Virus record (IMG/VR): IMGVR_UViG_3300037589_000020
Location: 1 to 28,676 of that record
DNA from: a virus
Taxonomy: Duplodnaviria > Caudoviricetes
DNA length: 28,676 bases
Direction: 5' to 3' (one strand)
The notes below the pieces were generated by a model that saw only the letters and a program-made list of their open reading frames with translations, was not told where the DNA came from and did no database searches. This document shows positions 17,803 to 28,283 of the stretch, piece by piece. How positions within the stretch are numbered: position 1 is the first letter of the stretch; every line of letters starts with the position of its first letter. A program made the position numbers and the translations under genes.

Positions 17803-19032
17803 TTACAGGTAAGCCACTCCGCCGCCCTGCATCTCGTGGACGGAAAGGTCTTCCACGGCGTAACGGATGGCGTCAATGCAGTGGTCGTCGCTGTCCGGGT
17901 CGGGCATCGGAAGCGGCTTGTCGTTGGGGTCAGCCTTCCAGCGGTAGCTCTTGATCTCCTCGTACGTAATGGGGCACTCGGGGTCAATGAGCAGTTGGTA
18001 TCCGCTTACGAAGTTGATACCGTTCTTGACGCTACCTGCCCCCTTGATGGCTCCGAACATGTTGTAGCCTTTGGAGTTCAGGTAGTCGATGGTTTCGGGA
18101 CGGGCGCTGTCGGCCGTGATCGGCCAGTCGCGCACCTCGTGTAAGTCGTCCATAAGGTCCGGCAGCTTGTTGTTCGGGACCTTATAGCCTACGTTCTCTT
18201 GAGCGACGTAGATAATGCCGTTGAATAGTGCCGGGTCAAGGCCCATGTCCTCGGGCTCAATGACGTACACCTTGACGATAGCGTTGGGGTCGGAACCAAA
18301 ACCGAAGTCCATGCCGAAGCGTGGCAGGCACTTCTCTGGGATGAAGTCCGGACGACCGATCGCGTAGTTGTCGAAGATTGCGAGGTCGGGGTTTTCGTCG
18401 TAACCGCCTTCCCAGATGTGCACGTGACGTTTCGGGTTGGCGCGAAGACTGCGACGGTACTCACTGGGCATCCGTGTCTGGTAGAAGAACGGATTGTCGC
18501 GCCAGCTTACGTGACGAATACAAGAGGCCTCAGGTGGGTGCGGCCCGCGAAAGAGCTGGTCCACCTCGTCGGTGCGGAAACGTGGGTTCCACGTCCAGAT
18601 CATTCTGGAACCGGGGGCACGGATGGTTGGAATGATTAGTTCCACCGACCGCTTGGTGAAGGTTTGCGCCTCCTCGCCCCAGAAGATCGTCGCGCCCTCA
18701 AGCGACTTGGCGCTTTCTGGGTTGCGATCCATACCGATGAACGAAAACCGACTACCCGTTGAGGTGTTGATGATTTCACGTTCAAGGATCTTGTGGCAGT
18801 CGTTCAGACCCATCTTATAGATCTTCTTCTCTAGAAGTTCCTTGACGGAGTCTTTGATAGAGTTTTGGTATTGCCGACCGCAAACTACTCGTTCGGTACG
18901 TTGCGCGGCAAGACCGATGCAGGCTTCTCCTACACCGTGAGATTTACCGCCGCCACGTCCACCGAAGAAGGCGTAGTGCTCATATCCCCCGTTCCACAGC
19001 GGAATATAGGCTTCGGCTATTTGAAGGTCCAA
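17803..19032 (-). CDS. terL: Terminase large subunit (PBSX-like family)
   Basis: Walker A GGRGGGKS, Walker B FWGEEA, TWNP, nuclease GMDFGFGSDP, ADSARPE and DHCIDAIRY; TTG start. Confidence 0.95.
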   Translation of the reverse strand: MDLQIAEAYIPLWNGGYEHYAFFGGRGGGKSHGVGEACIGLAAQRTERVVCGRQYQNSIKDSVKELLEKKIYKMGLNDCHKILEREIINTSTGSRFSFIGMDRNPESAKSLEGATIFWGEEAQTFTKRSVELIIPTIRAPGSRMIWTWNPRFRTDEVDQLFRGPHPPEASCIRHVSWRDNPFFYQTRMPSEYRRSLRANPKRHVHIWEGGYDENPDLAIFDNYAIGRPDFIPEKCLPRFGMDFGFGSDPNAIVKVYVIEPEDMGLDPALFNGIIYVAQENVGYKVPNNKLPDLMDDLHEVRDWPITADSARPETIDYLNSKGYNMFGAIKGAGSVKNGINFVSGYQLLIDPECPITYEEIKSYRWKADPNDKPLPMPDPDSDDHCIDAIRYAVEDLSVHEMQGGGVAYL

Positions 19033-19035
19033 GGG

Positions 19036-19200
19036 TTAAACGGTCTTCCGACCGCCTTGAACGGGCCCGGTGAGGGCAGTCTTCATCGTGCCAGACTGGA
19101 ACGTCTTGGCCGCCTGAGTGCGAGTCTGCCCGTTGGTACTTGCGACAGTGCGCGAAACCTGCGCCGGACGGCTCGCCTTTTTACCACATCCACAACCCAT
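19036..19200 (-). CDS. 54-aa basic micro-protein with N-terminal MGCGCGKK
   Basis: Below the ORF-track cutoff. AGGAG RBS; translates to MGCGCGKKASRPAQVSRTVASTNGQTRTQAAKTFQSGTMKTALTGPVQGGRKTV*, stopping 3 nt before terL. Confidence 0.8.
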   Translation of the reverse strand: MGCGCGKKASRPAQVSRTVASTNGQTRTQAAKTFQSGTMKTALTGPVQGGRKTV

Positions 19201-19226: not shown

Positions 19227-19502
19227 CTATATAACGGTTAGCACAACAGCGGTTCCGGTGACAACCCCGAAAATGGCCCCAAGTGAAAAGAAACGCCAAG
19301 AAAGGCAACACGAACAGTCTGCCCAGAGGTAAAGGACAATTTTCACCGTCCAGTGGTCGGGACTTTGGCACCAGTTTGGCATGAAGGTTTCACTGAACCA
19401 TGCCATAGAGTTACTCAGCCAGTTGTCCTCCCAAGACTCTTCCGGTTCGTCTCCATCGTACATGGGCTCCCAGTTCGGGCGGTGATTCCAAGGTATCCTC
19501 AT
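19227..19502 (-). CDS. 91-aa Trp-rich protein with CSCC motif and C-terminal TM helix
   Basis: ATGA-coupled start at 19502; ends ...LWADCSCCLSWRFFSLGAIFGVVTGTAVVLTVI. Confidence 0.7.
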   Translation of the reverse strand: MRIPWNHRPNWEPMYDGDEPEESWEDNWLSNSMAWFSETFMPNWCQSPDHWTVKIVLYLWADCSCCLSWRFFSLGAIFGVVTGTAVVLTVI

Positions 19503-19726
19503 TGCGGCCCTGCTCCTGCTGCTGTGGGGACGGTTGCCAAAAGCACCCTCCCAATTGTCGGCCACGTGTTCAAAAACACCATGATCCCACCAGAGGCCCA
19601 TACCACTTTTTCCAGGATGCGAAGGCGTTTTGACTGAGAGTCAAGGCGTTCTGTGTGCTGCGCGGCGATATTCTCGAGCGCGAGGATACGGCCCTCAACT
19701 AATCCGTCTTCGTACGTCTTGGTCAT
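19499..19726 (-). CDS. Small coiled-coil plus hydrophobic-segment protein (holin/XhlA-like architecture)
   Basis: 75 aa; RILALE...RLRILEK followed by a hydrophobic stretch; ATGA-coupled at both ends. Confidence 0.6.
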   Translation of the reverse strand: MTKTYEDGLVEGRILALENIAAQHTERLDSQSKRLRILEKVVWASGGIMVFLNTWPTIGRVLLATVPTAAGAGPQ

Positions 19727-19875
19727 CGGCAGAACCCCGGCTCGCCCTGTGTAAGCTTCTTGATGGTGACGTGCGCGCAGGCCCAGTCCTCGATGGCCTG
19801 TATGTGGGCGCTGTGGCCGTTGCCCCCCGGTCGCGAACTTGCTTCGCAGGGGCGCGGTGTGTTCACAATTGTCAT
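19723..19875 (-). CDS. 50-aa hypothetical protein with 3 Cys
   Basis: MTIVNTPRPCEASS...WAC...GFCR; AGGA upstream; fills the gap and is coupled to the next gene. Confidence 0.55.
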   Translation of the reverse strand: MTIVNTPRPCEASSRPGGNGHSAHIQAIEDWACAHVTIKKLTQGEPGFCR

Positions 19876-19879
19876 TAGA

Positions 19880-20137
19880 TTACTTCCTGACGCCAGTGCC
19901 GACCCAGACAGGTTCCAGCGCACTCATTTCGGTTTGGGATCGATGTGCCCCACACGACGGACAGCGGCCCCCGTGGTGCACAGTGCCGCAGTAGTCACAT
20001 GAAAAGTCTATGGGTGCTTGTACGGGGAGCGCAGGGGGAGGCATCGACAGGCGATCGCGCCTACCCCCTGCTAACTTGATGAGCCTCTCAATTCCTCCCA
20101 CAAGCATGAGGAAGAGTAGCTGACCAAGTATCTGCAT
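19880..20137 (-). CDS. 85-aa protein with hydrophobic N-terminus and CxxC...CxxC motif
   Basis: GGAG RBS before ATG 20137; CDYC-x8-CPSC. Confidence 0.65.
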   Translation of the reverse strand: MQILGQLLFLMLVGGIERLIKLAGGRRDRLSMPPPALPVQAPIDFSCDYCGTVHHGGRCPSCGAHRSQTEMSALEPVWVGTGVRK

Positions 20138-20141
20138 TTCG

Positions 20142-20642
20142 TTACTCCGTAGGCGGTTTCGCCTCCGGTTGCTGTTCAGGAGGCTCCAGGAACGTGCCGC
20201 TCTGGATTGGGACCAGATTGAACACTGGCAAGGGTGCGCCCCCGCCGCCGGTGGCTTCAACCTTGCTTTCTTGCTTCTCAGCCAGACCGAGGTCACGACC
20301 GATGATACTGGCGTTGAGCAATCCTGCCGCAGCGCCCTCAAACTTCTGCGTGTAGATGACCTCTTCGATCATTGCCACGACTTCCGCCCATTCTTCCCCG
20401 CGTGACTTGAACCCGTTTAACCGGGAGACAGTCATGCCGAGGTGGGAGGCGAGGCCCGTCTTGGTGTAGGGCCGCATCTTAGCGAGGTCGTCTTTGACGA
20501 TAACGCCTTGGAACTGAAAGCTCTTTTCCTCTAGGAGGGGGTGATTGTCCACCCACCTGAAGTAGTCCACCGCATCCTTCAACAGGTCGTCGGGTTTCAG
20601 GTAGATTTTCTTCTTCCGTTTAAGGAGTCGCTCGTAATACAT
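20142..20642 (-). CDS. terS: Terminase small subunit (P22 gp3-like)
   Basis: YFRWVDNHPL, KMRPYTKTGL and IYTQKFEGAAAGLLNASIIGRDLGL motifs match the P22 gp3 family. Confidence 0.9.
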   Translation of the reverse strand: MYYERLLKRKKKIYLKPDDLLKDAVDYFRWVDNHPLLEEKSFQFQGVIVKDDLAKMRPYTKTGLASHLGMTVSRLNGFKSRGEEWAEVVAMIEEVIYTQKFEGAAAGLLNASIIGRDLGLAEKQESKVEATGGGGAPLPVFNLVPIQSGTFLEPPEQQPEAKPPTE

Positions 20643-20773: not shown

Positions 20774-21283
20774 CTACATTTTGCGCAATTGCTGCTTTTT
20801 CACCTGCAAATACTGCATCCCGCCGCCCAATTGCACTCTGACGGTTCCATCGCTCTTAATGCGCTGGATAATGCCGACCACGCCGGGCAACAGGCACCCG
20901 CTGAGGTCCACCTTGTCGCCAACGTCAAACCACACCTCGTCCGCAGGCTCCGCCACGGGGGCCAGCCCTCCAGCAAACTCAGCGTTCAGGATTTCCTGCA
21001 TTCGCACCAACTCGCTGAGCTCCACCGTCCGTGGGTTCATACTGGGTTCGAAGAAAAGCTGACGCAGGAAGTACCGGCCCGGCACCCTGCGTCGGAAATC
21101 CTTGTGACGGGAGAGCGGGGCAAAGACAAGACCGTACATCGCAGGCCGCTCGATAACAGAGACCTCCTTTGTCTTCTTGTCAATGCGCCGTTCACGTTCC
21201 ACGGGGATGTAGACCCCGTGGGAATCTTTGAACTGTTTATAGAGCTCCATGGCTCCGCTACAGTTGAAGACGGCTAGTTTCAT
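20774..21283 (-). CDS. NusG-family transcription antitermination factor (NGN + KOW)
   Basis: VYIP...IERPAMYGLVF (NGN 'P.FPGY.F' equivalent) and C-terminal FDVGDKVDLSGCLLPGVVGII (KOW); last gene before the late operon. Confidence 0.8.
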   Translation of the reverse strand: MKLAVFNCSGAMELYKQFKDSHGVYIPVERERRIDKKTKEVSVIERPAMYGLVFAPLSRHKDFRRRVPGRYFLRQLFFEPSMNPRTVELSELVRMQEILNAEFAGGLAPVAEPADEVWFDVGDKVDLSGCLLPGVVGIIQRIKSDGTVRVQLGGGMQYLQVKKQQLRKM

Positions 21284-27821: not shown

Positions 27822-28217
27822 CTATTTGTAGGGCGTATCGTTCGTGTAGAAACAATTCCCGCCAATACATCCATCAAACTTGTAATGTTTGGTCCAAAAC
27901 AGAACATGACCCTCAGTGTGGAAGTGCGTGCTGGTAATGTCCAGCCCGGCCCCGCTCAGTTCGGCAAGGGCCACCGCCTTGGCCACGTCCCAAGCCCACT
28001 GGTCGGGCGCGCCATTCATGGGCGGCACAATGTCCATGCCCTTCTCAAACCATGGGAACGACCCGTCGGCAATAACCGAGCAGGCTGTGTCCGGGTAGCG
28101 GTGGTCCTCCACCCGGTTCATGATCACGGCGGCAACGGCGGCCATGGTGTCAGGGTCGGTGTAGCTCTGCCGGGCTTCCATGTAGGCGGCAAGGGCGATG
28201 CAGGTCATGCTAATCAT
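27822..28217 (-). CDS. Cell wall hydrolase, SleB/Hydrolase_2 family
   Basis: CIALAAYMEAR, AVAAVIMNRV...YPDTACSVI, FPW and IGGNCFY motifs; AAAGGA RBS before ATG 28217. Confidence 0.85.
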   Translation of the reverse strand: MISMTCIALAAYMEARQSYTDPDTMAAVAAVIMNRVEDHRYPDTACSVIADGSFPWFEKGMDIVPPMNGAPDQWAWDVAKAVALAELSGAGLDITSTHFHTEGHVLFWTKHYKFDGCIGGNCFYTNDTPYK

Positions 28218-28283
28218 TGGTCTGTCCTTTCGTTGCTGTGCATTCATCATACACAAAGGGGGCTGACTAGCAACCCCCTTTTC

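Follow-up and report, generated by a model that had tools for sequence, protein, structure and literature searches.

DsbB is built of four membrane helices, and its Arg48 stabilises the thiolate-quinone intermediate. Sulfhydryl oxidases of the Erv/ALR type are soluble four-helix bundles that bind FAD and combine a CxxC with a downstream His/Asn FAD motif, and the Erv-type proteins of poxviruses and mimivirus are small and helical, with the CxxC at the start of a helix. Work on inverted DsbB and VKOR was reportedly done by Hatahet and Ruddock in 2013, and Bacteroides phage PD491P1, the gp39 siphovirus and phage Jabs are said to be disulfide-linked. Engineered inverted DsbB and VKOR form disulfides in the cytoplasm (PMC5471842). 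Poxviruses, with E10R-A2.5L-G4L, and mimivirus, with its Erv-type proteins, encode pathways of their own by which virion disulfides are made despite the reducing cytoplasm (PMC13576161). Dedicated thiol oxidoreductase machinery has not been described in bacteriophages, as stated in the same source (PMC13576161, 2026). For Agrobacterium phage Milano, cryo-EM revealed a virion that is disulfide-cross-linked in capsid, neck, collar, sheath and baseplate, and tail contraction requires reduction; the available parts of these two structure papers mention neither the cytoplasm nor Dsb (PMC10811340, PMC10491603). The question addressed here is how a phage that is built in a reducing cytoplasm acquires a dense disulfide network.

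The window, i.e., the whole stretch of 28,676 nucleotides that was analysed, covers the late genes of a myophage. Its relatives include the Agrobacterium phages Milano, 7-7-1 and OLIVR4, to whose capsid protein its own is 50-52% identical, while the identity to that of the Synechococcus-labelled phages Ssp-JY38 and Yong-L2-223 is 61.5%. The gene under study (the focal gene, Table 1) is followed by the gene for the MGCGCGK peptide and then by that for the large terminase. The first-pass annotation had proposed a minimal DsbB-like thiol oxidase in a phage with a Cys-rich virion, and the cysteine counts of the capsid, sheath and collar proteins bear out the description of the virion. The product of the 75-aa gene upstream has no match in Pfam or PHROG and is presumably holin-like, judging by resemblance. 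Two small Cys-containing ORFs are found between the small terminase gene and the focal gene (19723-19875 and 19880-20137, minus strand); the one of 85 aa has a hydrophobic N-terminus and a zinc-ribbon-like CxxC-x7-CxxC motif, with a weak match to Pfam Zn_ribbon_3. A NusG-like transcription antiterminator (phrog_6386; 20774-21283, minus strand) is encoded just upstream of the small terminase, a position that is kept in several relatives, and is likely to serve late-gene control. A gene for a SleB-like cell wall hydrolase with PHROG endolysin matches lies outside the late operon (27822-28256, minus strand).

Table 1. Positions of the focal gene, its notable codons and other late genes in the window.
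Feature	Position	Strand	Observation
Tail sheath, 18 Cys/500 aa	8088..9590	-	51% identical to Milano gp20; candidate substrate
Collar protein, 9 Cys/246 aa	12002..12742	-	Similar to Milano gp13; candidate substrate
Major capsid protein, 11 Cys/493 aa	14215..15696	-	50% identical to Milano gp9; candidate substrate
Terminase large subunit	17803..19032	-	PHROGs
MGCGCGK peptide, 54 aa, basic	19036..19200	-	Ortholog of Milano gp5 / 7-7-1 gp111 (virion protein)
Focal gene, 91 aa	19227..19502	-	Milano gp4 (QBQ72027.1) ortholog: profile match E=7.7e-11, shared position
Hydrophobic C-terminal helix 71-91 with G75-x-x-x-G79	19230..19292	-	G75 in 103/107; median KD19 2.2 (107 homologues)
Codons C63-S-C65-C66-L-S-W-R70	19293..19316	-	CxxC and Arg in 107/107; start of AlphaFold2 helix 64-90
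Codon C45	19368..19370	-	Presence/absence coupled to C65, 0/107 discordant; 2-3 joint losses on tree
75-aa gene upstream of focal gene, stop overlapping focal start	19499..19726	-	KD19 1.39
Terminase small subunit	20142..20642	-	PHROGs

The focal ORF is real, with 91 codons on the minus strand and the plus strand closed. Its start overlaps the upstream stop codon as ATGA; a longer in-frame ATG at 19601 would overlap the upstream gene, and 19502 is favoured as the start because homologues begin at its equivalent. As first annotated, the protein has nine tryptophans, a W44-C45-Q-S site and the motif D62-C-S-C-C-L-S-W-R70-F-F-S-L-G75, its four cysteines being residues 45, 63, 65 and 66. The motif is strictly CxCC, and its middle cysteine, C65, is evolutionarily paired with C45. 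The 21-residue helix does not come after the motif, as had been described, given that residues 71-91 include FFSLG. The string quoted for E. coli DsbB, CVLCIYERCALFG, is correct. The motif had been granted to be possibly due to chance. When the focal protein is shuffled 200,000 times, CxxCxxxR turns up in 0.42% of the resulting sequences and CxxCxxxRxxxxG in 0.018%; conservation of CxxCxxxR in 107 of 107 aligned homologues can be taken as stronger evidence against a chance motif than the shuffles.

By tblastn, the focal protein matches only the two Synechococcus phages, and Milano is missed. The Milano ortholog, gp4, was found at low identity through synteny and a family profile, of which it is the sole significant match across the six frames of the Milano genome; as in the window, its gene is followed by those for the MGCGCGK peptide and the large terminase. 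Milano gp4 is annotated as hypothetical. It differs from the focal protein in its basic N-terminus and in having no WEDNWLSN segment, and it retains all four cysteines, the Arg, the Gly and the membrane anchor. The orthologs in 7-7-1 and OLIVR4 are 92-94% identical to Milano gp4, and from the gene order we infer that the one in 7-7-1 is gp110. The virion mass spectrometry table of 7-7-1 contains gp108, gp111 and gp113 and not gp110 in the part of the paper available, the supplements of which may list peptides (PMC3517404). The MGCGCGK peptide is a candidate substrate or carrier for the focal protein. Its gene persists beside a family member without C45 and C65 (L113:5156-5332). Milano gp123 (L029:30614-30868), an 84-aa protein with a C-terminal hydrophobic helix that is encoded after the small terminase, is by its resemblance what we take to be a candidate for the holin left unannotated in Milano and 7-7-1.

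Homologue searches gave 5 close relatives, 26 IMG/VR loci and 118 representatives at 50% identity. The alignment comprises 107 sequences (P0001-P0005 and 102 of the 118 representatives), and the 16 representatives left out comprise three long proteins, a number of fragments, and products that look frameshifted or chimeric. Among these, P0097 has Lys in place of the Arg, and P0065, P0079 and P0096 keep C65 and have no upstream Cys, since that part of the protein is absent or foreign. C63, C66 and R70 are invariant in the alignment and are present also in Milano gp4, as was expected of a functional motif by the first-pass annotation; the best-conserved non-Cys positions after R70 are G75 and G71 (91/107). 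C45 and C65 behave as a unit: both are present in 100 of the 107 homologues, both are absent in 7, and neither is ever found alone. In the members without the pair, C65 is replaced by Thr, Trp or Tyr, not by His or Asp. On a quick tree that was built with C45 and C65 masked, and whose forks are mostly unresolved, the joint loss takes three changes, of which at least two are forced by well-supported forks. The profile search weights the Cys columns, which makes members without CxxC harder to detect; losses of Cys are detectable by this search, because those of C45 and C65 were seen. WEDNWLSN, which does not vary among the close matches, was considered as a core motif and rejected, given that it was a search seed, is absent from Milano and distant members and is confined to one subfamily. 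Cluster look-ups for ten distant members gave no name beyond 'hypothetical', the ESM Atlas returned nothing but three clusters below 0.8, none of them named, and no matching structure, and the family is described in no paper among the matches listed in the open full-text literature, subscription papers being outside the scope. It is a real, widely shared phage membrane family with what reads as a redox-type signature.

AlphaFold2 (23 sequences) places helices at 28-40, 43-46, 51-58 and 64-90, with a pLDDT of 75. In this model, the CxxC opens the last helix, Arg70 is found one turn further along, and there is no thioredoxin fold. The proteins have one hydrophobic segment, and a 19-mer with KD above 1.6 upstream of it occurs in just 2 of the 107 homologues. 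The single C-terminal anchor that had been proposed is what is predicted, with the motif at its N-terminal end, and this fits a cytoplasm-facing site.

The likeness to DsbB consists of the CxxCxxxR(xxxxG) motif where a membrane helix begins, with CxxCxxxR in 107 of 107 members, and possibly of a further, losable Cys pair, which is arranged differently. The shared spacing was correctly noted, and in an hhalign alignment of 25 columns the two motifs are matched to each other. Kinship is another matter: the probability of this alignment is 0.7%, and its score is equalled by 10 of 60 column shuffles and by 19 of 60 motif-keeping shuffles, the DsbB profile being a shallow one of 101 enterobacterial sequences. 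PF02600 was matched neither among all 8 Pfam families returned for 23 members nor among the best 25 of the 42 families returned for the 107 members. PHROGs and PDB sequences gave no relevant match for the focal family, and a Foldseek search of the PDB with E up to 10 yielded 0 matches, a result of little weight given the small model and its pTM of 0.43. Membership of the DsbB family was rejected on the grounds of the single helix, the hhalign score at shuffle level and the absence of a match in Pfam, PDB sequences and Foldseek, and the likeness of the CxxCxxxR to that of DsbB may be convergent, or the motif too short for tracing descent. The differences from DsbB are several. The focal chain, with one hydrophobic segment, forms no four-helix bundle; it has 50-130 aa in the family versus 176, is phage-encoded and is predicted to face the cytoplasm; the second pair, where present, is made of C45 and a Cys inside the CxxC, whereas in DsbB the pair lies in a later loop; and a DsbA-like or thioredoxin-fold partner was not noticed on reading the focal loci. 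VKOR shares with the family a membrane CxxC and a second Cys pair, and it gave no match among the Pfam families listed, PDB sequences and Foldseek; the focal protein has a single helix and not the four-helix core. The engineered inverted DsbB and VKOR (CyDisCo) show that a quinone-linked oxidase can function when it faces the cytoplasm; they differ from the family in being engineered and multi-helix. Erv/ALR was likewise without a match among the Pfam families listed, PDB sequences and Foldseek, and its FAD-bound soluble domains contrast with a focal family that carries a membrane anchor and no fourth helix, the chain ending in the hydrophobic helix after the CxxC.

The family is present in Milano-like myophages, Bcep22-like podophages and long-tailed siphophages. 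With gene sets and six comparators that were hand-chosen, comparators that are 20-35% identical and three lineages, too few for a statistical claim, the Cys content of selected virion proteins is 2.43 and 2.24% in myophage carriers versus 0.74% in SfV, 2.42 and 2.28% in podophage carriers versus 0.72, 0.54 and 0.63%, and 1.07 and 1.01% in siphophage carriers versus 0.36 and 0.27%, i.e., approximately 3-4 times more in carriers than in gene-less relatives in each lineage. The family gene was found in none of four comparators and, in a search that detected 3 of 3 positive controls, in neither DLP5 nor DMS3. Among the records examined, there was no complete Cys-poor phage that carries the gene. 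The view of Cys-rich phages as the home of this protein is borne out by the enrichment over gene-less relatives in the three lineages; the siphophage carriers, with approximately 1% Cys, are not broadly Cys-rich, and there are the stand-alone bacterial copies described below. Zero Cys in tape-measure or ejection proteins was rejected as a signature, because it is found in 6 of 6 gene-less comparators as well as in 7 of 8 carriers. In siphophages, where the capsid is Cys-poor (3-4 Cys), the gene comes after a tail-tube gene bearing Cys28 and Cys47. Both cysteines are present in 3 of 3 aligned carriers and neither in the gene-less DLP5 and DMS3, and L132 carries the family gene together with the Cys pair, although the tube seeds that led to it were free of Cys. 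The phrog_807 tail tubes with the acquired cysteines are those of L077:9230-9988, L078:4433-5191 and L132:2904-3650, and the Cys28/47 pair is a candidate inter-ring disulfide. The Bcep22-like podophages G001:C1:53461-54081 (minus strand) and G002:C1:27683-28351 (plus strand) encode a head-tail protein of 206-222 aa with 25-26 Cys (26 Cys in 206 aa in one), their tail proteins have Cys-rich N-terminal arms, and their family members have extra Cys and a CWCC motif; these carriers are probably a disulfide-cross-linked podophage lineage. All of this is consistent with a putative tie of the family to disulfide-rich virions.

The reading preferred here, to which we assign a probability of roughly 45%, is that the focal protein faces the cytoplasm and, probably as an oligomer, acts as a quinone-linked thiol oxidase that makes the disulfides of the virion. 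This reading keeps from the proposed mini-DsbB the invariant CxxC and Arg and the enrichment of virion cysteines, and gives up the kinship to DsbB. The protein would be a late inner-membrane protein with the N-terminus inside, and C63-C66 would take electrons from virion cysteines, directly or via the MGCGCGK peptide, and hand them to membrane quinone at an Arg-lined site, where Arg70 would play the part of Arg48 in DsbB and stabilise a thiolate-quinone intermediate. Oligomers driven by GxxxG would supply the quinone pocket; an oligomer must be assumed because a monomer of 50-54 aa cannot enclose a quinone and one helix makes no pocket. A dimer prediction for residues 20-91 scored 0.02 against a mark of 0.42, which decides neither way. 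C45-C65 would be a dispensable structural or shuttle disulfide, acting as an optional second pair. As the outcome, disulfide cross-links would form in the capsid, neck and tail ahead of lysis or in its course, in the mode of a DsbB or VKOR turned inward without membership of the DsbB family. Host cytoplasmic reductases would oppose early oxidation. The thiol-oxidase reading agrees with the absence of the ortholog from the 7-7-1 virion table, in which gp111 appears, and with the activity of the engineered inverted enzymes in the cytoplasm. It is weakened by the Cys-poor capsids of the siphophages, by the copies in lysis cassettes, by the stand-alone copies in Paracoccus and by the fact that virion disulfides can arise in air with no catalyst (PMC13576161).

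The gene is seldom missing, which favours the preferred reading, and its position bears on the first alternative. When 35 loci on contigs of at least 40 kb were chosen by their capsid protein, the gene was found in 29 of the 31 resulting records (Milano-like 22/24; podophage 7/7 among the matches listed) and in 20 of the 21 that are at least 90% complete, these records being dependent in that the myophage seeds held Cys and many are near-copies or had already been found through the gene itself. The sole near-complete miss, G014, ends inside the large terminase gene, short of the usual place of the focal gene, and the other, G022, is 60% complete. The gene is retained although its position shifts: it is found ahead of the large terminase gene, ahead of the collar gene (L033) or behind the endolysin gene (L020, L024, L055). 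Transfer between head lineages is suggested by a close family member (L008:3913-4191) whose phage has a head module of a divergent HK97 type (capsid 25% identical, 7 Cys). The protein may be a lysis accessory, i.e., a single-helix holin, antiholin or redox-gated timer in which the cysteines set oligomerisation and the link to the virion reflects shared ancestry or hitch-hiking. This is in line with the one membrane helix and its glycine zipper (G-x-x-x-[GAS] downstream in the helix in 87/107), with the genes adjoining endolysins in L020, L024, L055, L083, L084 and L092, Milano-like variants among them, and with those heading podophage lysis cassettes. In the accessible part of the 7-7-1 paper, furthermore, a holin-lysin cassette was not recognised and the focal ortholog is missing from the virion table (PMC3517404). 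Nonetheless, the 107 members match no holin family among the best 25 of 42 Pfam families, a PHROG holin match was likewise absent, and the carrier L083 already has a PHROG holin. In siphophages, the gene for the form of 50-54 aa is flanked by those of the tail tube and the tail chaperone, a long way from the lysis genes. Carriers also have further small membrane proteins, which we take to be holin-like (Milano gp123, the 80-aa protein of JY38 and the 102- and 79-aa proteins of L092), and the enrichment of Cys in three lineages is left unexplained. A role in lysis is considered unlikely.

It is also rather improbable that the protein is a reductant or isomerase that keeps or restores the state of virion cysteines during assembly, with the final bonds made by air oxidation after lysis. 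Such a role would explain equally well why the CxxC is invariant, why a Cys pair is lost jointly and why the family goes with Cys-rich virions. Virion disulfides can indeed arise spontaneously in air, with no catalyst needed, according to the available part of PMC13576161. The AlphaFold2 model has, however, no thioredoxin fold, and an Arg four residues past a CxxC that opens a membrane helix matches the layout of a quinone oxidase. The cytoplasm is, moreover, already reducing, and a dedicated reductant would add little.

The orientation in the membrane decides on the next possibility. Every one of the 107 members has more Lys and Arg on its N side, with a median of 0 after R70, the N side being longer and holding the invariant Arg; the N-terminal parts are net acidic in 62 and net basic in 28 of the 107, and those of the Milano type are strongly basic. 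From this weak charge count, the N-in orientation of the predicted anchor is the likelier one. In the GTDB scan, made with close-family patterns only, four matches were obtained, one in a Milano-like prophage of Bradyrhizobium lablabi and three in Paracoccus. The latter are intact stand-alone copies, one among IS elements in Paracoccus sp. SM22M-07 (L125:10001-10291) and two in P. gahaiensis (L126:9932-10222 and L127:9932-10222), with a shared upstream flank and no phage genes among the ORFs listed nearby; host capture, e.g., for phage exclusion, is possible. A Cys domain that faces the periplasm and acts on envelope targets, whether spanin disulfides or incoming virions that are held oxidised in superinfection exclusion, would also account for such capture by bacteria, and an oxidising compartment suits a stable C45-C65 disulfide. 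The acidic N-terminal parts speak for it too. The available text on Milano, in which contraction needs reduction, agrees with it as well (PMC10811340, PMC10491603). The charge distribution in every member, the basic N-termini of the Milano type, the absence of a signal peptide and the late-operon location in lytic phages all argue against this arrangement, which we regard as very unlikely. The same low standing is given to a membrane-tethered metal or Fe-S protein, with the cysteines as ligands, for instance at a dimer interface: four cysteines on a probably cytoplasmic domain and a CxxC, a common metal ligand, would suit it, but two of the four disappeared jointly on two or more occasions, position 65 then being taken by Thr, Trp or Tyr, so that two disulfide pairs are favoured over a four-Cys site. 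C65 and C66, as direct neighbours on a helix, would moreover be awkward ligands, and the invariant Arg is left unexplained.

Taken at its widest, the thiol-oxidase reading would mean that tailed phages own a one-helix, self-assembling, DsbB-independent, cytoplasm-facing thiol:quinone oxidase that has been passed among myophages, podophages and siphophages, each time licensing the build-up of virion Cys cross-links, a generalisation that we hold to be doubtful. Milano gp4 offers a single test gene in a cultured, structurally solved phage, with a prediction at the level of residues: C63, C66 and R70 would be essential, and C45 and C65 dispensable as a pair. Even if the protein is no oxidase, the membrane family to which it belongs is conserved, has not been described before and goes with Cys-rich virions. 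If it is an oxidase, it would be a new minimal catalyst, useful for cytoplasmic disulfide formation in protein production, and, should the one-helix reading be true, the siphophage form of 50 aa would be the smallest such catalyst known.
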